32,000 nt of DNA, taken from positions 1,404,118 through 1,436,117 of the forward strand of contig NC_000909.1 of assembly GCF_000091665.1 (NCBI RefSeq), written 5' to 3'. Source of the stretch: Methanocaldococcus jannaschii DSM 2661 (GTDB lineage Archaea > AGJL01 > Methanococci > Methanococcales > Methanocaldococcaceae). The notes under the pieces are model-generated. The model did no database searches, was not told the origin of the DNA, and saw nothing but the letters and a program-made list of their open reading frames with translations. Shown here piece by piece: positions 2,429 through 31,425 of this stretch (its first letter is position 1; the number at the start of each line of letters is the position of its first letter). Position numbers and translations under genes: made by a program.

Positions 2429-3034
2429 ATGAGAAAATTCCTAATACTATCTATGTTAATCTTCACAACTCTATGTGGCTGTGTTGATTTCTCATCCTCT
2501 AATTCTAACGGTTATTATCATGATAGTTGGAGTTATAATAATTACACTTCTTTTGTAGATACTCATGAACACTACTACGGAAAGGTTGTTAAGGTTGTAG
2601 ATGGAGACACTGTTTATGTTGAAGTTAATGGGGAATTATGGAAGATTAGGCTTTTAGGGGTAGATACTCCAGAAATTCACAAGAGAAACAACCCGTATGA
2701 ATATTATTTATTAAATGGAACACCGATAACAGATACAAAATACTTAAAAGAATGGGGCTATAAAGCTAAGCATTTTGCAGAAAAAGAACTTAAAAATAAA
2801 ACAGTTATAATTGTCTTTGATAATGAAGCCCCAAAGAAAGATAAATATGGGAGATATTTAGCATACATCTTTATAAATAATAGTAATAATTTAATAAACT
2901 TCAATGAAGAGCTTTTAAAGTATGGATATGCAAGGGTTTATATAAGTAATTTTGAGTTAAAGGATGAATTCTTAAATGTTGAGAGGGAAGCTAAAGAAAA
3001 TAGAGTGGGTTTATGGAATTGGAGCAATAACTAA
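2429..3034 (+). CDS. Secreted/lipoprotein staphylococcal-nuclease (thermonuclease)-like nuclease
   Basis: Signal peptide ending in lipobox-like LCGC. SNase hallmarks VVDGDTV, RLLGVDTPE, GRYLAYI, EREAKENRVGLW. The ATG at 2429 follows GAGGGAGG; the listed ORF starts at 2411. Confidence 0.85.
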   Translation: MRKFLILSMLIFTTLCGCVDFSSSNSNGYYHDSWSYNNYTSFVDTHEHYYGKVVKVVDGDTVYVEVNGELWKIRLLGVDTPEIHKRNNPYEYYLLNGTPITDTKYLKEWGYKAKHFAEKELKNKTVIIVFDNEAPKKDKYGRYLAYIFINNSNNLINFNEELLKYGYARVYISNFELKDEFLNVEREAKENRVGLWNWSNN

Positions 3035-3040
3035 GGGGAG

Positions 3041-3193
3041 TTTTATGGAAGGGAGAACTTATGCATTATCATGAACCTTTAATAAAGGTTCATCAAAATG
3101 AGTGGGGCTTCACTTCGTTCAGCTCCACTTTATTTATAGCTACAAAAGTAATGGAGTGATTTTTTATGGAAGGAAAAGCCTATGCATTAGCAT
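3041..3193. repeat. Palindromic repeat element (MJRE-like) flanked by a 32-bp imperfect direct duplication of the aroK SD/start region
   Basis: 3041-3072 vs 3162-3193 are 27/32 identical without gaps. Perfect hairpin ATGAACCTTT-AAT-AAAGGTTCAT at 3071-3093; hairpin AGTGGGGCT-(11 nt)-AGCTCCACT at 3101-3129. Confidence 0.8.
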
Positions 3194-4014
3194 CTGGGAC
3201 AATAATAAACGCTATAGCAACAGGTAAGGGTTCAGCTTTTGGATTAGATTTAAAGGTTTATGCCAAAGTTAAACTTATAGATGATGGAAAAAACAAAATA
3301 GAGGGTAAAGTTTTAGATAATCCAAACATTAAGCCAAATTTAATAGTAAGATGTGTCAAAAATACTTTAGATTATTTTGGGCTGAATTACTCTGCCTATG
3401 TTGAAACAAAGACAGAAATTCCTATAAAATCTGGATTGAGTAGTAGTTCAGCCACTTCTAACGCAGTTGTTTTGGCAACATTTGATGCATTAGGGGAAAA
3501 AATAGATGATGAGCTAATATTAAATTTAGGGATAAAATCAAGTTTTGATGAAAAATTAACTGTTACTGGAGCTTATGATGATGCTACTGCATCATACTAT
3601 GGGGGAATAACAATAACTGACAATATAGAAAGAAAAATTTTAAAAAGAGATAAGATGAGAGATGATTTAAACGTCTTAATATTAATTCCAAATTTAGAAA
3701 AGAATGTTGATGTAAATAGAATGAAGCTAATAAAGGATTATGTTGAAATTGCCTTTAATGAGGCTATAAATGGAAACTATTTCAAAGCTTTATTTTTAAA
3801 TGGAATTCTTTATGCATCAGCTTTAAACTTTCCAACAAACATAGCAATAGACGCATTAGATGCTGGGGCAATAACAGCCGGTTTATCTGGAACAGGTCCA
3901 AGTTATATAGCCATGGTTGAAGATGAAAATGTTGAAAAGGTAAAAGAAAAATTAAATAGGTATGGAAAGGTTATTTTAACTAAACCAAACAATGATGGAG
4001 CTTCTATTTACTAA
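3166..4014 (+). CDS. aroK: Archaeal GHMP-family shikimate kinase
   Basis: GHMP kinase phosphate-binding motif [11 protein letters not shown]. Length and sequence match the non-orthologous archaeal shikimate kinase first identified in M. jannaschii. Confidence 0.9.
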
Positions 4015-4158: not shown

Positions 4159-7100
4159 ATGAAAATCACATTTTATATGTGGGCATCTTATTGCTCAATA
4201 TTAAAAAAGGCGTTGGATGAGCTTAAAAAAGAAGGAGTAGATGTTGAATATAAAATATATTCTAACAGAAATCCAATTGATGATGAGTTTTTAGAGGATG
4301 CAAAAGATTATGATTTAGTTTTTATTTATAGAACATCATCAGATGATATTGATTTAGAGAAGATAAAGAAGTTCAATGAAAACGTTATAGTTGTTGCCCA
4401 AGACCCAAACTTTTGGAATTCTGAAAAATCTGCTAAATGTTATTTATTTATAACTTATGGAGGTTTAGATAACTTCAAAAATATGGTTTTATATCTAATG
4501 GGTAAAGATAAAGATGTTGTAAAGCATCCATTCCAAGGTATCTATTATAGAGGCAAAATTTATGAAGAATTAGAAGAATTTTTAAAAGACGTTGAGTTTA
4601 ATAAAAAATATACGGTGGGGATTTTATTCTCAAGGCATTATTTAGTTAATGATGATATGGATGTTATTGAGAAGCTATTAAATAGATTGGACAAAGAATT
4701 CAATGTAATTCCAGTATTTTCCTATGGAGCTAAGTGTGAGGATTTAAATGCCTTAGGTAGTGGAGAGAGTGTTTTAAAATACTTCCTTAAAGATGATAAG
4801 CCAATAATAGACGCCTTAATCAATCTACTGTCATTTCCATTGGGAACTGTAAAAGATAAGGCTAATTTAAACAAAATCTCTGGAGTAGAGATACTTAAAA
4901 AGTTAGATGTGCCAGTATTTCATCCAATAATGAGTTATTATAAAAGCTATGAGGATTGGAAAAAAGATGAGCAAGGTTTATCTGCAGATATTGGTTGGAC
5001 TATAGCCTTGCCAGAGTTTGAAGGGGTTATAGAACCGATTATCATTGGAACTACTGAAAATGAGAACGGCTTAGAGAAGAAGTTTGGTATTGAGGAAAGG
5101 ATAGACAAAGTTGTTAGAAGAATAAAGAGATGGATTGAGCTAAAATACAAACCTAAGAAAGATAGAAAGGTTATATTTATATTGCATAACAATGCATGTG
5201 CATCTGTTGAGGCAACTGTGGGAAGTGCTGCCCATTTAGACAGCTTTCAAAGTGTTATAAACATAATGAAGAAGTTGAAGGAAGAGGGCTACTATGTAGA
5301 AAATATTCCAGAAAATGGAGAGGAGTTAGCTCAGCTAATTATGCAGAAGAAGGCAATTTCAGAGTTTAGATGGACTACCGTAAATGAGATTATAGCTAAA
5401 GGAGGATATCTATACTTAATGGATGAAGAAGAGTATTATGAATACTTCAACACACTGCCAGAGAATGTAAAAAATAAAATTTTAGAAACATGGGGAGATT
5501 TAAATGGTAAAGACATCCCAGCAGGAATGATTTATAAAGTTAATGGAAAAAATAAGATAGTTATAACTGGTTTAAAGTTTGGGAATGTCTATGTTTGTGT
5601 TCAACCAAAAAGAGGATGTGCTGGGGCAAGATGTGATGGAAGAGTTTGTAAGATATTACACGACCCTTATTGCCCACCAACTCATCAATATATAGCATCA
5701 TATAAATATTTTAATGACATTGCTGACATAATAATCCACGTTGGTACTCATGGAACTTTGGAATTTTTACCTGGAAAAAACGTTGGTTTATCTAACGAAT
5801 GCTATCCAGACATCTGTATTGGAGATATTCCTCATCTCTATATTTATAATTCAGATAATCCACCAGAGGGAACTATAGCAAAGAGAAGAAGCTATGCAAC
5901 TATTATTGATCACATGCAAACAGTTATGGTTGATGCATTTTATGAAGAGTTGGAGACATTAGATAGCTATATAGAGGAGTATTTAAAGGAGATGGATGCT
6001 TCAAGAAGGCATCAGTTAGAGCATTTGATAGTTGAGGAAGTTAAAAAAACCAATTTATTGAAAATTAAAGAAAAAATTGAGAAGATTGAAAAAGAAGGGA
6101 AAATCCATGAGAACTTTAAAGAGATATTTGATGAGCTAAGAGATATCTTAGAGATGATAAAGAACTCGAAGTGCAATGATGGAATGCATATCTTTGGAGA
6201 ACTTCCAAGTGGAGAGAAGAGAGTTGAGTTTATAAAGAGTATTTTAGAGGCGATATTCATCCAGAATAATACTATGAATAGTAAAAGGAGAGGCATTGCC
6301 GAGCGAAGCGAGGCAATGCATCCGGGGTATCCCAATAGGGGGCTTCCCCCTATGGAGTTTGAGTATAAAGATAAAAACCTAAAGAAGAAAGTTTCAGATG
6401 TATTAAATGGAAAGAGTATAGAAGATAAAAAATTAGAGGAGAAGATTAAGGATATCAATGAGAGAATTGAAAAATCAGATGAGATTGGCTCTTTGTTGAG
6501 AGGCATTGATGCCAAATATATAGAGCCAGGGCCTTCTGGGCTGATAACAAGAGGAAACTATGATATCTTACCAACAGGAAGGAACTTTTACTCATTAGAC
6601 CCATACCGAATTCCTACGAAATCTGCTTATAGAGTAGGGGTTTTATTAGCTGAAAAATTAATTAATAGATATTTAGAGGAGGAGGGAAGGTATCCTGAAA
6701 ACATAGCTCTATATTGGATGGCATCTGATATAATGTGGGCTGATGGGGAAGGAATGGGGATGATTTTATATCTATTGGGTGTTAAGCCAGTTTATAGAGG
6801 AGGGAGAGTTGTTGGCTTAGAAGTTATTCCATTGGAGGAGTTGGGAAGACCAAGGATTGATGTAACCATTAGAGTTAGTGGAATAACAAGGGATATGTTC
6901 CCAAACTGCATAGAGCTTGTTGATGAGGCAATAATGAAAGTTGCTAACTTAGATGAGCCATTGGAGATGAACTTTGTAAAGAAGCATGTTGTTGAGAACT
7001 TAAATAAAGGCCTATCATTTAGAGAATCAACATTTAGAATCTTCTGCTCTCCTCCTGGCACTTATGGAAATGGTGTTAAATATGCAGTGTATGCAAGTGC

Positions 7101-7839
7101 ATGGGAAAATGATGAAGATTTAAAAGATGCATTTATCTACTGGAACTCCTATGCCTATGGAAAGGATGTCTATGGAAAGAAGGCGATTAATGCATTTGAA
7201 AATATATTAAAGACAGTTGATTTAACATTTAATAAAGTTGTTACAGATGAGTATGATTTATTTGGATGTTGTTGCTACTTTGGAACGCATGGAGGTTTAA
7301 CAAATGCCGCAAGGGTTTTAAAAGGAGAAGAGGTTAAGGCATATTATGGAGATACAAGAAATCCAAACAATGTTGAAGTAAGAACTTTAAAAGAAGAAAT
7401 TGAGAGAGTTAGCTTAACAAAACTCTTAAATCCAAAGTGGATTGAGGGAATGAAGAGGCATGGCTACAAAGGAGCTGGAGATATAGCCAAGAGAATTGGC
7501 AGAGTTTATGGCTGGAGTGCTACAACAAAAGAGGTTGAGAATTGGATATTTGATGAGATATTTAATACGTTCGTGAAAAATGAAGAGAATAGAAAGTTCT
7601 TTAAGGAACACAACATCTATGCCTTAGAAGAGATTGCAAGGAGATTGTTGGAGGCTTATCAAAGAGGATTGTGGAAAACAACTGAAGGGAATATAGAGGA
7701 GCTAAAAAGGGCTTATTTAGAGATTGAGGGAGATATTGAAGAAACCTATAGTAGTATAGCAGATATTGGTGAATTCCAAGGAGGTAGTGTAGATATTGAC
7801 ATGATTTGGAAGGAAAAGCTTATGAGTAATGGGAGATAA
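4159..7839 (+). CDS. cobN: CobN / Mg-chelatase H-family large chelatase subunit
   Basis: 1226-aa ORF with the family signature HVGTHGTLEFLPGK and colinear CobN-like regions. Contains an in-frame GC-rich palindromic insert (separate feature). Confidence 0.9.
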   Translation: MKITFYMWASYCSILKKALDELKKEGVDVEYKIYSNRNPIDDEFLEDAKDYDLVFIYRTSSDDIDLEKIKKFNENVIVVAQDPNFWNSEKSAKCYLFITYGGLDNFKNMVLYLMGKDKDVVKHPFQGIYYRGKIYEELEEFLKDVEFNKKYTVGILFSRHYLVNDDMDVIEKLLNRLDKEFNVIPVFSYGAKCEDLNALGSGESVLKYFLKDDKPIIDALINLLSFPLGTVKDKANLNKISGVEILKKLDVPVFHPIMSYYKSYEDWKKDEQGLSADIGWTIALPEFEGVIEPIIIGTTENENGLEKKFGIEERIDKVVRRIKRWIELKYKPKKDRKVIFILHNNACASVEATVGSAAHLDSFQSVINIMKKLKEEGYYVENIPENGEELAQLIMQKKAISEFRWTTVNEIIAKGGYLYLMDEEEYYEYFNTLPENVKNKILETWGDLNGKDIPAGMIYKVNGKNKIVITGLKFGNVYVCVQPKRGCAGARCDGRVCKILHDPYCPPTHQYIASYKYFNDIADIIIHVGTHGTLEFLPGKNVGLSNECYPDICIGDIPHLYIYNSDNPPEGTIAKRRSYATIIDHMQTVMVDAFYEELETLDSYIEEYLKEMDASRRHQLEHLIVEEVKKTNLLKIKEKIEKIEKEGKIHENFKEIFDELRDILEMIKNSKCNDGMHIFGELPSGEKRVEFIKSILEAIFIQNNTMNSKRRGIAERSEAMHPGYPNRGLPPMEFEYKDKNLKKKVSDVLNGKSIEDKKLEEKIKDINERIEKSDEIGSLLRGIDAKYIEPGPSGLITRGNYDILPTGRNFYSLDPYRIPTKSAYRVGVLLAEKLINRYLEEEGRYPENIALYWMASDIMWADGEGMGMILYLLGVKPVYRGGRVVGLEVIPLEELGRPRIDVTIRVSGITRDMFPNCIELVDEAIMKVANLDEPLEMNFVKKHVVENLNKGLSFRESTFRIFCSPPGTYGNGVKYAVYASAWENDEDLKDAFIYWNSYAYGKDVYGKKAINAFENILKTVDLTFNKVVTDEYDLFGCCCYFGTHGGLTNAARVLKGEEVKAYYGDTRNPNNVEVRTLKEEIERVSLTKLLNPKWIEGMKRHGYKGAGDIAKRIGRVYGWSATTKEVENWIFDEIFNTFVKNEENRKFFKEHNIYALEEIARRLLEAYQRGLWKTTEGNIEELKRAYLEIEGDIEETYSSIADIGEFQGGSVDIDMIWKEKLMSNGR
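6283..6357 (+). repeat. GC-rich palindromic repeat element inserted in frame within cobN (MJRE-like)
   Basis: 38 of 60 nt are G/C in 6291-6350 versus 15 of 50 in 6241-6290. Hairpins GCATTGCC-GAGCGAAGCGA-GGCAATGC (6293-6319) and CC(A)ATAGGGGG-CTT-CCCCCTATGG (6332-6355). Reading frame stays open (..KRRGIAERSEAMHPGYPNRGLPPME..). Confidence 0.75.
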
Positions 7840-8049
7840 ATTGGACTATTTTTATTTTTGTAAAATTTTTACCTTTTATATAACTTTAAAAAATTAAATT
7901 ACTTATTTATAATATTTTAGCTGGATAATATTTTCACAATTTGTATTATTATCAATAATTTCCATAGCCAAAATTAAAAATTGTAAAGATAGAAAATTTA
8001 TATAAGCATGACAAGCATAAGAATTTTTATAAAGTTCTACGGTGGGACT

Positions 8050-10822: not shown

Positions 10823-11596
10823 ATGGAAAAACCAGTTATATGTAGAATAAAAGAAATAATAGAAGAAAGCCCAACAGTAAAAACATTTGTAGTAGATAAA
10901 GATTTTGATTTTAAGCCGGGACAGTTTGCAATGCTTTGGCTTCCGGGAGTTGATGAAAAACCATTTGGATTTTCTTCTAAAAATAGTTTTAGTGTTGCAA
11001 GAGTTGGAGAATTTACCAAAAAAATGCATGAACTAAAAGAAGGAGATATAATAGGAGTTAGAGGGCCTTATGGAACATATTTTGAGCCAATAGGAGATAA
11101 GGTTTTGGCAGTTGCTGGAGGTATTGGAGCTGCACCAATTATAACAGCAGTTGAAGAATTTTCAAAGCAGGGAATTGAAATAACAACCATATTAGGGGCG
11201 AGAACTAAAGAAGAGTTATTATTTTTGGATAGATTTGAAAAAGTTAGCAGATTAGAGATTTGCACAGATGATGGTAGTTTTGGATTTAAAGGTTTTACAA
11301 CTGAAAAAATGAAAGAAGTCCTTAAAGAAGAGAAATTTGATTTAATTATAACTTGTGGGCCAGAAATAATGATGAAAAAGGTTGTAGAAATAGCAAATGA
11401 ATATAATATTCCAGTTCAGGTTTCAATGGAGAGGTATATGAAGTGTGGTATAGGTATTTGTGGGCAGTGTTGTGTAGATGATGAGGGACTTTGTGTTTGT
11501 AAGGATGGGCCAGTATTTTGGGGAGATAAGTTGAAATTTATTAGAGAATTTGGGAAGTATAAGAGAGATGCAAGCGGTAAGAAGATTTATTATTAA
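10823..11596 (+). CDS. pyrK: PyrK-type FAD/NAD-binding, [2Fe-2S] electron-transfer subunit (dihydroorotate dehydrogenase B partner-like)
   Basis: Ferredoxin-reductase-type FAD/NAD module (AGGIGAAPI) plus C-terminal cluster CGIGICGQCC..C..C. Size (257 aa) fits PyrK. Confidence 0.7.
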   Translation: MEKPVICRIKEIIEESPTVKTFVVDKDFDFKPGQFAMLWLPGVDEKPFGFSSKNSFSVARVGEFTKKMHELKEGDIIGVRGPYGTYFEPIGDKVLAVAGGIGAAPIITAVEEFSKQGIEITTILGARTKEELLFLDRFEKVSRLEICTDDGSFGFKGFTTEKMKEVLKEEKFDLIITCGPEIMMKKVVEIANEYNIPVQVSMERYMKCGIGICGQCCVDDEGLCVCKDGPVFWGDKLKFIREFGKYKRDASGKKIYY

Positions 11597-11682
11597 CATT
11601 ATAAGGTATTGATATTTAGTTTTGATCAACCTTTTCTAAAAAGGTTGTTCGGGGAGTATATAGAGATGCGAGTGGAAAATTG
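11549..11682. repeat. Palindromic element flanked by a ~34-bp direct duplication of the pyrK 3' end (right copy frameshifted relic)
   Basis: 11549-11583 vs 11648-11681 align with one 1-nt indel. Both encode ..RDASGK... Hairpin CAACCTTTT-CTA-AAAAGGTTG at 11627-11647. Confidence 0.7.
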
Positions 11683-11717
11683 TTAAATTTTAAATAAAAT
11701 AGCTACAAGGGATTAAT

Positions 11718-12863
11718 ATGATAAAATTTGGAGAAGCAGTTTTGGGAAATGAAATTAAGGCAATAGTTAATGTTGCATTAGGGAAAGGAGAGTTAATTGA
11801 GAATACCTTTACAAATGCTTTAACAAGAGGAAATTGTGTTTTTGCCAATTTAAGACCTAATTTAATAGTTAAACCATTAACCTTAGTTGTTCCAAGGCAT
11901 AATATAGAGAGTGAGATACAGGATGAGCTATTTCAGGGAGTTATTCAGTATGCAGTTGCCAAGGCAGTTGCTGATTTAGATTTAGATGAAGATTTAAAGG
12001 TTGTTGTCTCTGTTAATGTCCCAGAGGTTCCAATAACCAATTTAAATAAAAGAAAACTCTTCCAATACTTCTATGCCTCAGCAAAGTTAGCTATAAACAG
12101 AGCTTTAAATGAATATCCTTCAAAAGAGAAGGTAAAGAAAGAGAAATATAGAGCTTTGCATCCATTAGTTGGATTTAGGGATGTTAGATTGGAGTATCCT
12201 CCATATCTACAAATTGCTTTGGATGTCCCAACTATGGAGAATTTGGAATTTTTGTTACAAACAATTCCAAATAGCGACCACATCATCTTAGAGGCTGGAA
12301 CACCACTAATTAAAAAGTTTGGTTTAGAGGTTATTGAAATAATGAGAGAATATTTTGATGGCTTTATTGTTGCTGATTTAAAAACCTTAGACACTGGAAG
12401 GGTTGAGGTAAGATTGGCATTTGAAGCAACAGCTAATGCAGTGGCAATAAGTGGAGTAGCACCAAAATCAACAATAATTAAAGCTATCCACGAATGTCAA
12501 AAATGTGGTTTAATCAGCTATTTGGATATGATGAACGTCTCTGAACCTCAAAAATTATATGATTCATTAAAATTAAAGCCAGATGTTGTTATCTTGCATA
12601 GAGGGATTGATGAGGAGACATTTGGAATTAAAAAGGAATGGAAATTTAAGGAAAACTGCTTATTAGCAATTGCTGGAGGAGTTGGTGTGGAGAATGTTGA
12701 AGAGCTTTTAAAAGAATATCAAATATTAATCGTTGGTAGAGCAATTACAAAATCAAAAGACCCAGGAAGAGTAATTAGGATGTTTATAAACAAGATGGGT
12801 TATGATATAGACACTTATAGGCTTTATTTTGATGAGGATGAGGATATAGGGGAGGAATTATGA
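11718..12863 (+). CDS. fae-hps: Bifunctional formaldehyde-activating enzyme / 3-hexulose-6-phosphate synthase (Fae-Hps)
   Basis: N-terminal Fae-like domain fused to an OMP-decarboxylase-fold HPS domain (LQIALD, ADLKTLDTG, IAGGVG). 381 aa as in the characterised M. jannaschii fusion. Confidence 0.9.
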   Translation: MIKFGEAVLGNEIKAIVNVALGKGELIENTFTNALTRGNCVFANLRPNLIVKPLTLVVPRHNIESEIQDELFQGVIQYAVAKAVADLDLDEDLKVVVSVNVPEVPITNLNKRKLFQYFYASAKLAINRALNEYPSKEKVKKEKYRALHPLVGFRDVRLEYPPYLQIALDVPTMENLEFLLQTIPNSDHIILEAGTPLIKKFGLEVIEIMREYFDGFIVADLKTLDTGRVEVRLAFEATANAVAISGVAPKSTIIKAIHECQKCGLISYLDMMNVSEPQKLYDSLKLKPDVVILHRGIDEETFGIKKEWKFKENCLLAIAGGVGVENVEELLKEYQILIVGRAITKSKDPGRVIRMFINKMGYDIDTYRLYFDEDEDIGEEL

Positions 12864-19275: not shown

Positions 19276-19854
19276 ATGATAAGTGAAGTGGTTGTAACAA
19301 CAAGAAAAAATAATAGAGACAATAAAGCCCCAATTGGTGTTTATTTTAAAGATAAAAAAGTTATTATGCATCTTTTTTCTGGCTCTCATACTTATGAAAA
19401 TCTTTTAACTGAAGATTATTTTTCAGTTAATGTGGTTCCACCAATTGAGATAGCAAAGGCAGTTTTAGATGATGAGGATGATTATCTTTATTATAATGAC
19501 ATTCCTTATCTAAAAAGCTCTTATTATGCTATATTTTACAAAGTTATCGAAAGAAAGTTTGTTGATAGGGAAGATAAATTTGGAAAAAACAGATTGATGA
19601 TTTTAGAGGGAGAGGAAATAAAGAGGATATATTTAAACAACATCCCAAAGCCATACAATAGGGCAGACGGCTTATTGGTGGAGATAGCAGTTATCTACTC
19701 AAGATTAGCCAACAAAAATATAAAAATTAATGAAGATGACAAAAAAGAGATGATAAATGACATTAGAAAATATTTCTCAATAATTAAAAAAGTTGGAGGT
19801 AGAGAACATAAACAATTAGCTGAAATTATGCTAAGAAATTTAAATTTACTTTAA
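19276..19854 (+). CDS. Conserved protein, probably FMN-binding split-barrel-like (DUF447-like)
   Basis: Starts 2 nt after the upstream stop. N-terminal VVTTR...APIGVYF...GSHTYENL pattern resembles that family; family assignment from memory only. Confidence 0.5.
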
Positions 19855-21598: not shown

Positions 21599-22888
21599 AT
21601 GGTGACTGGAATGATAATTAAAAAAATTAAAGAATTAACAAAGGAAGAAGAGGAGAAAATAATTAATAGGAATAAAGCAAACTTTGAGGAAATATTGCCA
21701 ACAGTAATGGAGATTTTGAAGGATGTTAAAGAAAAAGGGGATGAAGCATTAAAATATTATACAAAAAAGTTCGATGGTGTAGAAATAGAAGATTTTAAAG
21801 TTACAGATGAGGAGATAGAAGAAGCTTATAACTCAGTTGATTATAAAGTTGTTGAAGCTATTGAGAGAGCTAAGGAAAACATTTATTTCTTCCATAAAAA
21901 GCAGATGGAGCAAATAAAAGATTTAAATGTTGAAAATAATGGAATAATTTTAGGACAGGTTGTTAGAGCAATAGAAAAAGTTGGATGCTATGTTCCTGGA
22001 GGAAGGGCATTTTATCCTTCAACTGTTTTAATGACAACAATTCCTGCAAAGGTTGCTGGATGTGAAGAGATATATATAACCTCCCCACCTACAAAAGATG
22101 GGAAAGGAAATCCAGCTACCTTAATAGCAGGAGATATTGTTGGAGTTTCAGCTATTTATAAGGTTGGAGGAGTTCAAGCTATAGGGGCATTAGCCTATGG
22201 AACAGAGACTATCCCAAAGGTTGATATTATTGTAGGGCCTGGGAATATATATGTAACAACAGCTAAAAAGATGGTTTATGGAGAAGTTGCCATAGATTTC
22301 TTAGCAGGTCCTTCAGAGGTTTTAATTATTGCTGATGAAACAGCTAATGCAGAGTTTGTTGCCTTAGATTTTATTGCCCAAGCTGAACACGACCCTAACG
22401 CCTCTTGTGTAATAACAACAACATCTGAAAAGAAGGCAGAGGAGATTAAAAACAAGATATTTGAAGAGATAGAAAAAGCTGAAAGAAAGGAGATTATTTT
22501 AAAAGCCTTAGAAAACTCTGCCATATTAATTGGTGATTTAGAAGAGTGTATTGAATTCTCAAATAAATATGCCCCAGAACATCTTGAAATATTAACTAAA
22601 AATCCAGAGGAAGTTTTAAATAAAATTAAACATGCTGGAAGTGTATTTTTAGGAGAGTATAGCCCAGTTCCTGTTGGAGATTATGCTTCTGGAACTAATC
22701 ATGTTCTGCCAACTTCACAGTTTGCGAGAATGAGTTCTGGTTTGAATGTAGAGACATTTTTAAAGAAAATAACATATCAAAAATTGGATAAGGAAAGCTT
22801 AAAAAATATTGCTGATATTGTTATCACATTAGCTGAAGCTGAAGGTTTGTTTGGGCATGCTGAAGCTGTTAGAAGAAGATTAAAATAA
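21599..22888 (+). CDS. hisD: Histidinol dehydrogenase
   Basis: Family signatures AQAEHD, GPSEV, GDYASGTNHVLPT. 429 aa (425 if the start is 21611). Confidence 0.95.
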   Translation: MVTGMIIKKIKELTKEEEEKIINRNKANFEEILPTVMEILKDVKEKGDEALKYYTKKFDGVEIEDFKVTDEEIEEAYNSVDYKVVEAIERAKENIYFFHKKQMEQIKDLNVENNGIILGQVVRAIEKVGCYVPGGRAFYPSTVLMTTIPAKVAGCEEIYITSPPTKDGKGNPATLIAGDIVGVSAIYKVGGVQAIGALAYGTETIPKVDIIVGPGNIYVTTAKKMVYGEVAIDFLAGPSEVLIIADETANAEFVALDFIAQAEHDPNASCVITTTSEKKAEEIKNKIFEEIEKAERKEIILKALENSAILIGDLEECIEFSNKYAPEHLEILTKNPEEVLNKIKHAGSVFLGEYSPVPVGDYASGTNHVLPTSQFARMSSGLNVETFLKKITYQKLDKESLKNIADIVITLAEAEGLFGHAEAVRRRLK

Positions 22889-22898
22889 TTTTTATGTG

Positions 22899-23303
22899 AT
22901 GGTTATGACAGCACTAACCTTATTAATTTTATTTTTTGGATTAGCATTTATTTTAGTTGGTTTTGGATTGATACTGGGATATTTAATATTTAGTAGAAAG
23001 AATAAGACTGTAAATGGAACAGCCAATAGAACAGTTGTAGTTGAGAGAGATAGTAGCAATTTATTAGGAACTGCTGCAGCTGTTGCTGGTGGAGTTATAG
23101 CTGGAGAGTTGATAACTGATGCAATAGAAGATGTGATAAATAATAACGAAAATAACGAAGCTGATGGGTATAATTCTGAAGGAATAGAAACAACAATAGA
23201 AGACACAATAGAAGAAATTGACAAGGGAGTAGATAATGTAATTGAGGACATAACTGATGAAATAGATAACATTACCAATGATATAGGCGATAGCTTCTTT
23301 TAA
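22899..23303 (+). CDS. Small membrane-anchored protein with highly acidic C-terminal tail
   Basis: One N-terminal TM helix, a Gly/Ala-rich second hydrophobic segment, then a D/E/N/I-rich repeat tail. Preferred over the mirror minus-strand ORF, which is Ser/Ile low complexity. Confidence 0.6.
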   Translation: MVMTALTLLILFFGLAFILVGFGLILGYLIFSRKNKTVNGTANRTVVVERDSSNLLGTAAAVAGGVIAGELITDAIEDVINNNENNEADGYNSEGIETTIEDTIEEIDKGVDNVIEDITDEIDNITNDIGDSFF

Positions 23304-23364: not shown

Positions 23365-24021
23365 ATGGAAATTGGAATCAGCATAGAGGCAGAAAATAAA
23401 GTAGGAGTTTTGCACAAACTTACGGGAATTCTTTCTGAATTGGGAGGGAATATAACCTATACTCAACAATTCATTAAAGATGATGGTAAAATTGGATTTA
23501 TTTATATGGAAGTTGAAGGGATTAAAGATATTGAGGAGCTAAAGAGAAGAATGGAGAGTTGTGAGTGTGTAAAGAGCTTTGAAATTCACAGCTCATTAAA
23601 AAAGATTTATGGTAAGAGAGTTATTATTATTGGTGGAGGGGCACAAGTTGCTGAAGTTGCGAGAGGGGCGATAAGTGAGGCAGACAGGCATAATATAAGA
23701 GGGGAGAGAATTAGCGTAGATACTCTTCCAATAGTTGGTGAAGAAAATTTATATGAGGCTGTTAAAGCTGTAGCAACTCTTCCACGAGTAGGAATTTTAG
23801 TTTTAGCTGGCTCTTTAATGGGAGGGAAGATAACTGAAGCAGTTAAAGAATTAAAGGAAAAGACTGGCATTCCCGTGATAAGCTTAAAGATGTTTGGCTC
23901 TGTTCCTAAGGTTGCTGATTTGGTTGTTGGAGACCCATTGCAGGCAGGGGTTTTAGCTGTTATGGCTATTGCTGAAACAGCAAAATTTGATATAAATAAG
24001 GTTAAAGGTAGGGTGCTATAA
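23365..24021 (+). CDS. ACT-domain protein with a C-terminal conserved domain of unknown function
   Basis: N-terminal ACT-like segment (ENKVGVLHKLTGILSELGGNI). The C-terminal 130 aa are Gly/Ala/Val-rich (IIIGGGAQVAE...). Confidence 0.7.
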   Translation: MEIGISIEAENKVGVLHKLTGILSELGGNITYTQQFIKDDGKIGFIYMEVEGIKDIEELKRRMESCECVKSFEIHSSLKKIYGKRVIIIGGGAQVAEVARGAISEADRHNIRGERISVDTLPIVGEENLYEAVKAVATLPRVGILVLAGSLMGGKITEAVKELKEKTGIPVISLKMFGSVPKVADLVVGDPLQAGVLAVMAIAETAKFDINKVKGRVL

Positions 24022-24162
24022 AGATAATTTAATAATTTTTGATGAAACCGAAGCGTTAGCTTTGGGTTATGAAACTCCATGATTTTCATTTAATTTTTTC
24101 CTATTAATTTTCTCCTAAAAAGTTTCTTTAACATAAATAAGGTTAAAGGGAGAGCTCTATGA
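23992..24162. repeat. Palindromic element (24022-24132) flanked by a 30-bp direct duplication of the ACT-gene end / ade start junction
   Basis: 23992-24021 vs 24133-24162 are 25/30 identical ungapped (first 17 identical). Both read INKVKGR(V/A)L-stop. Nested hairpins at 24046-24068 and 24069-24089. Confidence 0.85.
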
Positions 24163-25829
24163 TTGTCTTCAAAAATACAAAGATTATTGATGTATATACT
24201 GGAGAGGTTGTTAAAGGAAATGTTGCAGTTGAGAGGGATAAAATATCCTTTGTGGATTTAAATGATGAAATTGATAAGATAATTGAAAAAATAAAGGAGG
24301 ATGTTAAAGTTATTGACTTAAAAGGAAAATATTTATCTCCAACATTTATAGATGGGCATATACATATAGAATCTTCCCATCTCATCCCATCAGAGTTTGA
24401 GAAATTTGTATTAAAAAGCGGAGTTAGCAAAGTAGTTATAGACCCGCATGAAATAGCAAATATTGCTGGAAAAGAAGGAATTTTGTTTATGTTGAATGAT
24501 GCCAAAATTTTAGATGTCTATGTTATGCTTCCTTCCTGTGTTCCAGCTACAAACTTAGAAACAAGTGGAGCTGAGATTACAGCAGAGAATATTGAAGAAC
24601 TCATTCTTTTAGATAATGTCTTAGGTTTAGGAGAGGTTATGAACTATCCTGCAGTAATAAATGAAGATGAAGAGATGTTAAAAAAGATAGAAGTAGCTAA
24701 AAAATACAATAAATTGATAGATGGGCATTGTCCAAAATTAAAAGGTTGGGAGTTAAACAAATATATATCTCATGGAATAATGAGCGACCATGAGAGTGTT
24801 GATGAAGATGAGGCATTAGAAAAGCTTAGATTGGGATTAAAATTAATGATTAGAGAAGGAACAGCATCAAAAAACATCTATTTGCTTAATATATGCAAAA
24901 AGATAAAAGATTTTAGGAATATAATGTTGGTTAGTGATGACGTCTGTATTAAAGATTTAGACGGCTACATGTTAAATATTTTAAGAAAAGCCACAAACTA
25001 TGTTTCTCCAATTGAAGCTATTCAAATGGTTACAATAAATCCAGCAAATTATTTTGGGTTTGATGTAGGAATTAAAGCTGGAAATGAGGCAAGTTTTGTA
25101 ATCTTTGAAGATTTAGACAATTTTAAAGTTTATAACATTGTCATAAAAGGAAGATTCTTAGATGATGTTTTAAATGAACTAAATAAAAATAAAAAAAGAA
25201 AAATTCCCGAAAAGCTCATGAATACTTTAAAATACCAATACAAAAACGAAGGTGATTTTTTAATTAAAGGGATTGATTATAAGGAGAGAGATGGATTTAT
25301 TAGAGTAATAAAACCATTAAAAGATTCTCTAATAACTGAAGAGCTAATATTTAGCACTGAAGAAATAAAAATATTACTGAATGAAAATGCTATAAATAAA
25401 ATCTTCGTTATAGAGAGGCATAAAAATACTGGAAATATTGGAAAGGGTTTAATATACAACTTCTTGGAGGAGGGAGCTTTAGCCTCTTCCTATGCTCACG
25501 ATTCTCATAATGTAATAGCCATAGGAAATAATGAGAAAGATTTAGCCTTAGCTGTAAATAAATTAAAAGATATTGGTGGAGGATTTATAGCTGCTAAGGA
25601 TGGGGAAGTTGTTGAATATCTTCCTCTACCAGTTGGAGGGATAATGGGAGATGATGGAAAATACATAGCTGAGAAGATTAATGCTTTGTATAAAAAAATA
25701 GAAGGTTGGAGTTCTTTTGAGAACCCATTTTTAAGTATGAGCTTTTTCTCTCTCCCTGTGATTCCTGAGCTAAAAATAACTGATAAAGGTTTGGTTAAAG
25801 ATATGCAGTTGGTTGATTTATTTATTTAG
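24159..25829 (+). CDS. ade: Adenine deaminase
   Basis: Amidohydrolase metal site [20 protein letters not shown], and the two-domain 556-aa architecture of adenine deaminase. Confidence 0.9.
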
Positions 25830-26306
25830 CTCATCAACTTCCTTAACTTCAAACACACATTTATCTTTTCCTTGAGAAACACATTCAACCTCATTAACAA
25901 CAAATTTCTTTTTAAATATCTCTTCTAAACATCCAGCTAAGATTCCAGCTATAAAATCATGAATTGGTTCTTCTTTAGATACCCATTGGTATGGAGGATT
26001 AGATAGCTTTATTTTATATGGTGGATTTTTGAGAAGTATTTTATTTTCGTCAATCTCCAAATCTCCAAAATTCATTAATTTGAATATTTTTTTCAATTCT
26101 TCAATATTTTTAGGAGATAACATTTTTCCAAATTCTTCACCAATTTCATATAATGAGGTTTCTGAACCAAGTTCTTTAACTTTATCAAATATTACCAATG
26201 CAAACAACCCAAAATATGGCATAGGAATTTTTTTACTTTCTTTTATTATCTCTTCATTTCTTATTGCTTCTAAAATGTCTGGAAAGATTTTTTCCATAAA
26301 AGCCAC
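25818..26306 (-). CDS. V4R (4-vinyl reductase-like) domain protein
   Basis: 162 aa. C-terminal GILAGCLEE...[14 protein letters not shown] resembles the V4R small-molecule-binding domain signature. 12-nt convergent overlap with ade. Confidence 0.55.
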
Positions 26307-26434
26307 CTTTCTTTTTTAATATATTTTTTAATTATTTAGTGTTATGACCTAATCAATAACATCTATGTAAAACAAAATATATAAAACTTTGTAATAATAA
26401 ATATTAAAAAATAGGTATTATTTATTAATTTTTA

Positions 26435-27034
26435 TTAATTAATATTCATCTTTTTCAATCCCAACTTGATAATATTATATTTTAAGTTTTTGTTTATGCC
26501 CATTCTTTCAAAAACCCTATCTTCGAACTCCATATAAACAGCTGTGGCAACCAAAGACATTCTTTCAATTAAATCATCAAACTCTTCCATAACTTTTAAA
26601 TACTCTTCAGTTGGTAGTTCCTCTTTTAATTTTTCTTCTGCCGTCTCTCTTATTTCCTCCAATCCACATAAAATATACAACGGTTCAAAATCCAACTCAA
26701 CAAATTTCATTGCATCTTTTGCTATAATTTTAAAAAATTCATTTAATTTTTCTTCATCATCACTATATTCAAATAACTTCTCAACCCAGTTTTTCATGCG
26801 ATTTTCTATCTCCCCACATGCGTTTGTGGTGCAACTACTGTGATTATTCCTATTTTTGCAGATGCATGGATTATTTCTAAACCTCTCTATAAACACATTT
26901 ACAGCGTTTAATAAATCTTTTTTTAATATATCTTCATGCTTTTTAATCTCTTCGTATTTTTTAACTTTTTTAATGAAATATTTCATATTACCTACTGCAT
27001 TATTGAAGATGCTATCAAAATCAAATTGCTCCAT
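26435..27034 (-). CDS. Hypothetical protein (199 aa), Lys/Glu-rich, helical, with CxC...C...C patch
   Basis: Long ORF, visibly more AT-rich than its neighbours. Cys patch CICKNRNNHSSCTTNAC. No family recognised. Confidence 0.55.
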   Translation of the reverse strand: MEQFDFDSIFNNAVGNMKYFIKKVKKYEEIKKHEDILKKDLLNAVNVFIERFRNNPCICKNRNNHSSCTTNACGEIENRMKNWVEKLFEYSDDEEKLNEFFKIIAKDAMKFVELDFEPLYILCGLEEIRETAEEKLKEELPTEEYLKVMEEFDDLIERMSLVATAVYMEFEDRVFERMGINKNLKYNIIKLGLKKMNIN

Positions 27035-31316: not shown

Positions 31317-31425
31317 AATAGGACTTTTGCAGTTTATAGATTTGTTAAGGTTACTTGATATCTAACGGTGTTATCATTCAATTAGAATTGTATTCTTGCG
31401 AAAGTCCTATTAGGCACTTTTAGGC
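31317..31425 (-). promoter_or_regulatory. Inverted plus direct repeat structure in the thrC upstream/leader region (alternative hairpins or another palindromic element)
   Basis: AATAGGACTTTTGCA (31317-31331) pairs with TGCGAAAGTCCTATT (31397-31411; 14 Watson-Crick pairs plus one G-T). A third copy, ATTAGGCACTTTTAGGC (31409-25), can pair locally with 31400-31408. Confidence 0.45.

Follow-up and report, generated by a model that had tools for sequence, protein, structure and literature searches.

A duplicated ACT/ade gene junction in Methanocaldococcus jannaschii and its relatives, with a palindromic hairpin element between the M. jannaschii copies

Introduction

The genomes of hyperthermophilic methanogens are tightly packed, and many of their gene pairs overlap. 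How two genes that share their ends could be moved apart without damage to either is the question raised by one locus of Methanocaldococcus jannaschii DSM 2661. The window analysed here, the whole 32-kb stretch of DNA from this organism, carries in order hisD, a small MJ1457-like gene, a gene encoding an ACT/DUF5612 protein and ade (Table 1). The end of the ACT gene is found a second time immediately in front of ade, with 111 nt between the two copies. An earlier note on this DNA had read the arrangement as an ancestral overlap of both genes that was opened when the segment 24022-24132 inserted and, in doing so, duplicated about 30 bp of its target. The 218-aa ACT/DUF5612 ORF is 100% identical to a protein of M. 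jannaschii DSM 2661 described as conserved hypothetical. Some sources label this protein EhbQ.

Table 1. Features of the window discussed in the text (positions counted from its first nucleotide)
Feature	Position	Strand	Sequence, content and source
SNase-like/GHMP-kinase junction duplication	3030-3194	+	3041-3072 vs 3162-3193, 27/32; insert ~75 nt
PyrK-like/Fae-Hps duplication, probable	11548-11720	+	degenerate, ~70 nt, collinear; copies 11548/11647
hisD	21599-22888		upstream of the ACT/DUF5612 gene, as is the small MJ1457-like gene; ORF list, Pfam
ACT/DUF5612 gene, MJ1458-like, 218 aa	23365-24021	+	TAA stop 24019-24021; ORF list; Pfam ACT, ACT_AHAS_ss, DUF5612
Copy 1, extended	23986-24021	+	TTTGATATAAATAAGGTTAAAGGTAGGGTGCTAT plus AA; codes ..F-D-I-N-K-V-K-G-R-V-L-stop
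Copy 1, core 30 nt	23992-24021	+	ATAAATAAGGTTAAAGGTAGGGTGCTATAA; terminates the ACT/DUF5612 ORF
Filler, 14 nt, AT-rich	24022-24035	+	AGATAATTTAATAA; outside the region aligning with the M. fervens element
Composite palindromic element, 97 nt	24036-24132	+	aligned to the M. fervens element; folds
Left arm of the 97-nt element	24036-24047	+	TTTTTGATGAAA
GC hairpin of the 97-nt element	24048-24065	+	CCGAAGC-GTTA-GCTTTGG
Second module of the 97-nt element	24066-24093	+	GTTATGAAACTCCATGATTTTCATTTAA
Right arm of the 97-nt element	24094-24132	+	TTTTTTCC...CTAAAAAGTTTCTTTAAC; includes the 15-nt extra, 24100-24114
Copy 2, extended	24127-24162	+	TTTAACATAAATAAGGTTAAAGGGAGAGCTCTATGA; now the ade leader
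Copy 2, core 30 nt	24133-24162	+	ATAAATAAGGTTAAAGGGAGAGCTCTATGA; reads I-N-K-V-K-G-R-A-L-stop; TGA overlaps the ade ATG at 24159
ade, adenine deaminase, 556 aa	24159-25829	+	ORF list; Pfam Amidohydro_1, Adenine_deam_C; homologues named adenine deaminase

The two copies of the junction

The two cores agree at 25 of 30 positions, the first 17 nt being identical, and ungapped extension in a repeat search lengthens the match to 34 nt (28/34, 82%; 23986-24019 versus 24127-24160). The coordinates, the degree of identity, the 17-nt exact core and the reading frames reported in the earlier note are all confirmed. In a scan of the whole 32-kb window for direct repeats identical at 25 or more of 30 ungapped positions and lying 30-400 nt apart, two loci were obtained, the ACT/ade junction and 3041/3162, against a mean of 0.017 per window expected from 60 first-order Markov simulated windows; the permutation check of the 30-nt match that had been proposed thus gives a clear answer. 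The 17-nt repeat is, furthermore, the longest exact short-range direct repeat of the window. The duplication of the junction is real, and chance is excluded.

Each copy retains a different part of the old junction, as had been suggested. Copy 1 holds the C-terminus of the ACT protein and is kept as coding sequence in all orthologues, and copy 2 holds the ribosome-binding site and start of ade, that is, a Shine-Dalgarno-like GGGAGAG and the ATG at 24159, together with a relic TGA.

Orthologous junctions and age of the duplication

The junctions of relatives were gathered through searches of genome and metagenome contigs with the ACT and ade proteins. The genome-contig search with the ade protein returned few loci, M. 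jannaschii itself not being among them, and the metagenome search with the ACT protein added only a contig already known (L016) and an ACT-cutA arrangement. That contig, from a metagenome-assembled genome (MAG L016, JAMOTQ010000061), carries a single copy of the junction, ...GATATAAATAAGGTTAAAGGGAGAGTTTTATGATTGTC, in which the ACT ORF (4305-4961) and the ade ORF (4958-6628) share a 4-nt ATGA stop/start overlap. It was recovered again in the metagenome collection as L028, which is the same contig and not an independent allele. The single copy can be aligned to both copies of M. jannaschii. The empty site that had been predicted is therefore found, in one metagenome assembly, together with the ATGA overlap postulated for the ancestor, and this allele shows that the overlapping arrangement is viable.

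Both copies are present, on the other hand, in strain 16A, M. lauensis and the MAGs L007, L008 and L021, where the spacers between them range from about 34 to 333 nt and are mostly not alignable. In M. lauensis, L007 and L008 the spacer has 34-35 nt, is AT-rich (TAACCGTTAGTTAATAATAAATAAAAAAGGCATGC) and non-palindromic and contains no hairpin; in M. lauensis two copies of about 29 nt flank a spacer of 35 nt. No significant similarity was detected between the M. lauensis spacer and the M. jannaschii spacer, the 16A spacer or its own flanks, and its derivation from ACT or ade by duplication was rejected on the last of these comparisons. The spacer of strain 16A (~95 nt) has in common with that of M. 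jannaschii only its right end, TTTCA.TAA..TTTTTTCCTATT (P about 0.02), and its left half is occupied by a different hairpin in the same place. In L021 the spacer reaches about 333 nt and consists of a cluster of other hairpins with GC-rich modules; on the left it starts with TAACCGTT, just as the M. lauensis spacer does, and about 260 nt of extra hairpins lie beyond. In M. fervens ACT and ade are apart and ade follows thiC, and the ade leader still contains a degraded copy 2 that matches the junction (P about 0.007); the ade leaders of M. vulcanius and M. indicus, taken as negative controls, gave no match. ACT does not adjoin ade in M. vulcanius, M. infernus, M. villosus, M. indicus or Methanotorris igneus, and these genomes are unusable as empty sites.

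The claim that the insertion of segment 24022-24132 in M. jannaschii made the duplication does not survive this comparison: M. lauensis, L007, L008, L021 and 16A lack the M. jannaschii insert and have both copies all the same, around spacers that are different or, in 16A, share only the right end. Orthologues of this sort, with neither the insert nor a single-copy overlap, are what the earlier note had named as a refutation. As these genomes indicate, the duplication is specific neither to M. jannaschii nor to its 111-bp insert.

The duplication is old, because the single-copy L016 is nested among duplication-bearing genomes in a neighbour-joining tree of ACT+ade DNA (200 bootstraps): (vulcanius, ((((Mj,16A)98, L016)75, fervens)97, ((L007,lauensis)100, L021)100)). 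Copy 1 ends in TAT|AA in every genome with both copies, the left boundaries of the duplication agree to about 3 nt between genomes (for copy 2 the clades are 2-3 nt apart), and copy 2 of M. jannaschii differs from copy 2 of L021 at one of 28 positions. For these reasons we favour one old duplication, which would have taken place in the common ancestor of the M. jannaschii/16A/M. fervens clade and the M. lauensis clade. The single copy of L016 is then probably secondary, the product of a precise repeat-mediated deletion, since one gain and one loss are enough where three independent gains would otherwise be needed. An overlapped ancestor is required whichever way L016 is read, because copy 2 reaches right up to the ade ATG.

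The insert of M. jannaschii and its hairpin family

The 111 nt had been treated in the earlier note as a single unit with nested hairpins. They prove to be a composite of a filler, a basic hairpin, a nested module and a 15-nt extra. Of the nested hairpins, the CCGAAGC/GCTTTGG stem is the sole robust one in both DNA and RNA folds, whereas the ATGAAA/TTTCAT pair is present but weak; the whole-insert fold z-scores are -2.4 (DNA) and -1.5 (RNA). There is only weak similarity between the filler and the 16A and M. lauensis spacers at their left end. The reverse complement of the 97-nt element aligns along its length with an element of M. fervens (score 56, shuffle maximum 29) that exists there in two copies, at 3652-3775 and 6055-6179 of contig L006 (3658-3780 and 6061-6179 in the alignment with M. 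jannaschii). These are 97.6% identical over 125 nt and lie within 2.4 kb, and each begins where a gene has its stop codon. Compensatory changes distinguish the GC stems of the two species, CC..GG in M. jannaschii versus GG..CC in M. fervens, and the alignment identifies both elements as homologous.

The M. jannaschii insert belongs to a multi-copy, MITE-like family of TTTTGATSAA hairpins with the core TTTTGATSAAMC-loop-GKTT. The basic unit is a hairpin of the form TTTTGATGAAAC-TTTT-loop-AAAA-GTTTCAT, with outer arms TTTTGATGAAAC and GTTTCWTTTA and stems of 9-12 bp; in the composite this unit is split by the nested two-hairpin module, to which the 15-nt extra comes in M. jannaschii. Intact basic units are found in strain 16A (L014:5979 and L014:20357) and M. 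igneus (L012:5931), and the window itself has two more (minus strand 3074-3098, plus strand 11620-11646); their stem variants are compensatory (GAAAC/GTTTC, CAACC/GGTTG, GAACC/GGTTC). The earlier observation that other inserts of the window have the same frame, TTTTGATGAA..CC...GG..TT, is borne out by these last two, and the copies in M. fervens, 16A, M. igneus and the window agree with the proposal that the insert is part of a repeated palindromic family. The members number about 8-10 in ~260 kb of Methanocaldococcus and Methanotorris DNA. Presence and absence can be seen at two sites: M. jannaschii has an insert at the ACT/ade junction where L016 has none, and a 280-nt cluster of 16A (L014:5731-6011) corresponds to overlapping gene ends in M. 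jannaschii and L016. The termini of an IS-like region at the end of the window (ATAGGACTTTTGC) are unlike those of the palindromic element. Matches of the hairpin pattern in IMG/VR (34, mostly in unrelated AT-rich viruses) were taken as convergence of AT-rich palindromes and not as an origin.

Other junction duplications around family hairpins

Related elements had been expected to be bracketed by duplications of their insertion sites, and this is the case at 3041/3162, in M. igneus and probably at 11548/11647. At 3041/3162 the Shine-Dalgarno, the ATG and the first codons of the GHMP-kinase gene are duplicated, the match reaching back, with gaps, to the stop of the preceding SNase-like gene; a family hairpin on the minus strand (TTTTGATGAACC..GGTTCATGAT) and a GC hairpin lie between the copies. 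The duplication at 11.6 kb spans the last ~15 codons of the PyrK-like gene and the Fae-Hps leader, its second copy still reading YRDASGK in frame, and its insert is a 32-nt family hairpin, TTAGTTTTGATCAACCTTTTCTAAAAAGGTTG, and nothing else. In M. igneus a family hairpin is bracketed by two copies of the start of a radical-SAM gene (5898-5922 versus 5996-6020, 15/16 at the ATG). The match at 11.6 kb is weak (P about 0.04-0.18, not significant with gapped scoring at P about 0.18), as is that of M. igneus (P about 0.01-0.03, significance being lost with gapped scoring); gapped flank alignments are too permissive in DNA of 31% GC, and both cases are graded weak for this reason.

A family hairpin thus lies between the copies, in at least one genome, at all four long junction duplications, and no comparable flank similarity was observed at 15 control intergenic sites. 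The lengths of the flanking repeats vary: about 34, 32-45, 25 and 70 nt in the four cases, 8 nt or less at the 16A cluster 5731-6011, and undetectable at four others, no long flanking repeats having been detected at the two M. fervens copies or at 16A 20357.

Proposed history of the ACT/ade junction

A long target duplication coupled to an insertion at the ancient ACT/ade junction, followed by turnover of the spacer, is the full sequence of events towards which we lean, if modestly. ACT and ade would at first have overlapped by ATGA, with the ade ribosome-binding site within the last ACT codons. A short piece of DNA would then have inserted at the junction in the common ancestor of the clades, and the same event would have duplicated about 34 bp of the target, either through a widely staggered break with fill-in or through a replicative template switch that copied the junction again. 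Copy 1 would have kept the C-terminus of ACT, the first bases of the insert completing its TAA, and copy 2 the Shine-Dalgarno and ATG of ade, so that both genes would survive, uncoupled. Later the spacer would have turned over, giving in M. jannaschii a 14-nt filler plus a 97-nt composite palindrome, and the L016 lineage would have gone back to the single-copy overlap, most likely by precise deletion between the repeats. Of the earlier interpretation, three parts are upheld: that the genes once overlapped, that the duplication preserved both of them and that the insert belongs to a family. The present 111-bp segment as the cause is not.

Insertion and duplication may well have been one event, and a reading of this kind is favoured by the presence of a hairpin in four of four duplications when the family has only some 8-10 members in ~260 kb. 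The original insert would then have been of the hairpin family; since the spacer of the M. lauensis clade is hairpin-free, it may instead have been something else and the hairpin element perhaps a later arrival. Template switching or irregular staggered breaks are preferred over a transposase because the length of the duplication is variable. Several facts speak against a coupling of insertion and duplication: family copies without long flanking repeats exist, no known transposase fits duplication lengths of ~25, 32-45, 34 and 70 nt, and two of the four supporting cases (M. igneus and 11.6 kb) are statistically weak. As a general rule, which we put forward tentatively and would not yet count as the probable one, a palindromic hairpin family of Methanococcales would integrate with long, variable target duplications (~25-70 bp) by template switching or staggered breaks and not by a classical transposase. 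Since both gene ends would be rebuilt, its members could enter junctions whose genes overlap or abut, would open new intergenic regions there and uncouple the genes, and could be removed precisely by recombination between the repeats.

Less likely, but to be taken seriously, is a history in which the duplication came first. Slippage or unequal recombination would have duplicated the ~34-bp junction, with or without an AT-rich filler, and palindromes would have colonised the spacer later, the TTTTGATGAA composite landing in the M. jannaschii/16A lineage and GC-rich hairpin clusters in L021. The short, non-palindromic spacers of M. lauensis, L007 and L008, which are unrelated to the element, are what such a history predicts, and L021, in which the M. 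lauensis left end is followed by other hairpins, shows later colonisation; the filler that separates the M. jannaschii element from copy 1 and the element copies that elsewhere lack long flanking repeats point the same way. A simple tandem duplication, however, predicts abutting copies, which are seen in none of seven genomes, and family hairpins lie between the copies at the three other junction duplications, at 11.6 kb as the sole insert. With so few family members in the DNA surveyed, it is unlikely that each of these spacers was colonised by chance.

Recurrent insertion is improbable. Here the overlap of L016 would be ancestral, and the M. lauensis clade, M. fervens and the M. jannaschii/16A pair would each have acquired an insert of their own with a ~30-bp duplication. 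Spacers that cannot be aligned between the two clades, the single copy of L016 and the small shift of the left boundary of copy 2 would be accounted for in this way, at the cost of three gains on the tree instead of one gain and one loss; the coincidence of both boundaries to ~3 nt, the invariable TAT|AA and the near identity of copy 2 between M. jannaschii and L021 are opposed to it as well.

We give very little credence to the idea that the copies are attL/attR-like remnants of an integrative element, or the outcome of ectopic integration of the Cas1-Cas2 type, with an interior later deleted or replaced. Integrative elements do typically rebuild the end of the gene that they target, and the ~34-bp duplication and the 35-nt M. 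lauensis insert have the sizes generally known for CRISPR repeats and spacers. Nevertheless, the inserts of M. jannaschii (111 nt), 16A (~95 nt) and L021 (~333 nt) are not of spacer length, inserts and duplications range from 32 to 333 nt and from 25 to 70 nt across the cases, and the recurring content is a hairpin family and not spacer-like DNA. A search of the viral contig collection gave no exact match to the core of the M. lauensis spacer, and neither an integrase gene nor a CRISPR array adjoins the ACT/ade locus in the ORF list or among the called genes searched with Pfam.

Finally, convergence of A-rich and purine-rich sequences under codon usage and Shine-Dalgarno constraints is scarcely credible and effectively refuted, in spite of the GGGAGAG in copy 2, by the low expectation in simulated windows and by the L016 junction, whose single copy aligns with both; and the same low standing applies to the insert as a box C/D small-RNA gene, an identity rejected here, whose best weak Rfam match is the C/D-box snoRNA model snoMe28S-Gm3113 (18 bits versus gathering 70, E = 1.7), because neither strand of the insert has a CUGA D box and no hit in the whole window attains the gathering score of an Rfam family (a local E-value scan was at chance level). 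The UGAUGA at 24040-24045 follows a U and does not make the C box RUGAUGA.

Possible function of the separated junction

The palindrome has T-tracts on both strands, and T-tracts are a kind of signal used in archaeal termination. The element may now act as a T-rich palindromic terminator or insulator. A candidate ade promoter, TATTAATT, is located at 24106-24113, ~23 nt upstream of a putative start near 24137. With a start at this place, GGGAGAG would lie at the usual Shine-Dalgarno distance according to the spacing rules of PMC2699501, a promoter paper that contains no data on MJ1458 or MJ1459. The net effect, as predicted from these signals, would be that two genes once coupled in translation are now expressed separately.

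In compact archaeal genomes overlapping genes could accordingly be separated without breakage, by duplication of their junction, and the change is reversible in practice, because a single-copy allele exists. If insertion carries a long target duplication with it, selfish hairpins could colonise gene junctions without killing genes, new intergenic spacers with independent promoters and terminators could arise, and operons could be split and fused again. The series of alleles (overlap, then spacers of 35, ~95, 111 and ~333 nt) constitutes a natural set for the comparison of coupled and independent expression. If the duplications are products of template switching, they would offer a rare view of replication-based rearrangement in polyploid archaea.

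Comparison with known systems

Palindromic repeats of this kind are already known from archaea. Small palindromic repeats such as MITEs, SM1-4 of Sulfolobus, Correia/NEMIS of Neisseria, REP/BIME, ERIC and RPE of Rickettsia are reviewed in PMC2229807, where some of them are described as suppliers of terminators or promoters. The family described here resembles them in being short, non-coding, hairpin-forming and multi-copy, in its presence or absence between relatives and in its location at gene boundaries. Classical MITEs, however, make short target duplications of a fixed length set by the parent transposase. Flanking duplications in the present family are long (~25-70 bp), variable and sometimes absent.

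The closest relatives may be the palindromic repeats MJRE1-3 of M. jannaschii (Suyama, Lathe & Bork 2005, FEBS Lett), which are cited in passages of PMC2229807 and PMC2996958. The element studied here comes from the same organism, is 97 nt long, palindromic and multi-copy, and has destroyed neither gene. MJRE are reportedly ~100 bp long, palindromic and mostly extragenic, with low identity between copies, and are said to number 141 copies in three groups; some reportedly lie inside coding regions whose coding is not destroyed. Compared by description only, the family is probably that of the MJRE repeats; long flanking duplications that rebuild gene ends are not known to be part of their description.

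Integration by Cas1-Cas2 or casposons is, to our knowledge, the only well-known prokaryotic chemistry that duplicates ~30 bp of target, and the M. lauensis allele, with a ~30-bp duplication around 35 nt, matches a product of it in its dimensions (ectopic 'neo-CRISPR' formation included). The variable sizes of insert and duplication, the hairpin content and the lack of an array or leader context set the junctions apart from that chemistry.

The L016 junction, for its part, is a textbook case of an ATGA-overlapping coupled pair, with a 4-nt overlap and the second gene's ribosome-binding site within the first, and the ACT gene of M. villosus has a like overlap with a different downstream gene. 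Unlike such pairs, the genes of M. jannaschii are separated by a duplication of the segment that they had shared, and uncoupling of overlapping genes by this route is, as far as we know, not commonly described. As far as can be told, long and variable duplications that rebuild gene ends, and an allelic series that extends from an overlap to a spacer of ~333 nt, are new.

Junction duplications in the window

Besides the ACT/ade junction, a second junction of the window is duplicated (Table). The left copy of this repeat, 3041-3072, reads TTTTATGGAAGGGAGAACTTATGCATTATCAT and is identical to the right one at 27 of 32 positions; from the GHMP-kinase gene, whose start is now at 3166, it holds a dead Shine-Dalgarno sequence, an ATG and 9 codons. 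The insert that separates the two copies carries a TTTTGATGAACC hairpin on the minus strand and also a GC hairpin, GTGGGGCTTCACTTCGTTCAGCTCCAC. Another duplication, degenerate in sequence, flanks a 32-nt hairpin (TTAGTTTTGATCAACCTTTTCTAAAAAGGTTG) at the PyrK-like/Fae-Hps junction and its second copy can still be read in frame as ..YRDASGK..; this duplication is statistically weak (P 0.04-0.18, according to the scoring).

Table. Coordinates of the features described in the window, in related genomes and in metagenomic and viral contigs
Feature	Location	Remarks
Second junction duplication	Window 3030-3194	Copies 3041-3072 and 3162-3193; 27/32 match
Degenerate duplication, ~70 nt	Window 11548-11720	PyrK-like gene 3' end and Fae-Hps gene leader
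MJ1457-like small gene	Window 22896-23303	Weak DUF2076 match
V4R-domain gene and 199-aa gene	Window 25818-27034	Downstream of ade
Different, classical-looking MITE	L014 (strain 16A) 7727-7893; window 31318-31410	Inverted ends ATAGGACTTTTGC / GCAAAAGTCCTAT
Hairpin cluster, ~280 nt	L014 (strain 16A) 5731-6011	Between convergent DUF447 and dehydroquinase genes
Composite element, 125 nt, two copies	L006 (M. fervens) 3652-3775 and 6055-6179	97.6% identical
Radical-SAM gene start, two copies	L012 (Methanotorris igneus) 5898-6020	98 nt apart
M. jannaschii-identical contig with ~456-bp deletion	L002 (Logan SRR4245585) 3650-3720	Window about 24082-24537; 3 samples
Hairpin pattern, viral	L075 2900-3400; L072 9130-9260; L073	IMG/VR

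Hairpin elements in related genomes

Methanotorris igneus has two copies of a radical-SAM gene start (ATGAGRATAACAATAT...), and a hairpin of the same family as the M. jannaschii insert lies between them (5931-5955). The upstream copy has its own Shine-Dalgarno sequence, GGGAGGT, and opens a 13-codon ORF with its stop within the hairpin. Both copies of the M. fervens composite element start precisely where a gene ends in CTATAA, the ACT gene in one case and an ELP3-like radical-SAM gene in the other, and therefore the terminus TAAATGAAAC overlaps the stop codon.

The DUF447 and dehydroquinase genes overlap by 9 nt in M. jannaschii (window 19846-19854) and in L016 (723-731), the metagenome-assembled genome with the single-copy ATGA junction. 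At this place strain 16A has a cluster made up of GC-rich hairpin modules and two TTTTGATGAA units, an insertion that supplies the DUF447 gene with a new C-terminal end (..GP-stop) and whose flanking repeat is of 8 nt only, ATTTAGGA. The separate MITE is inserted upstream of hisD in strain 16A; the matching M. jannaschii site, about 21579, is empty, and the M. jannaschii copy adjoins an IS-like region located at the window's end.

Rearrangement downstream of the ACT gene and differences in gene content

In two metagenome contigs from close relatives (L029 and L030) the ACT gene, 96-97% identical to that of M. jannaschii, ends with GTGCTATAA as it does in this species, and 16 nt after it a cutA-like gene takes the place of ade. 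Therefore, the region 3' of the ACT gene is a recurrent rearrangement point. The deletion in L002 has one end in the middle of the insert (...GAAACTCCAT) and the other at ade codon ~127 (CCTGTGTTCC...), and both copy 2 and the start of ade are lost; this may reflect variation between strains or an artefact of assembly.

Close relatives also differ twice in gene content: the MJ1457-like gene is present in M. jannaschii, L016 and M. fervens and absent from strain 16A and M. lauensis, and the V4R-domain and 199-aa genes are present in M. jannaschii and L016 and absent from strain 16A and M. fervens.

Hairpin pattern in viral contigs

The hairpin pattern of the insert family is also found in viral contigs. 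L075 (31% GC) has a small ORF with the pattern on either side, and in L072 and L073 (21% GC; a 239-kb virus) the hairpin itself lies between direct repeats of 35-42 nt. These viral hairpins may represent convergence of an AT-rich palindromic terminator.
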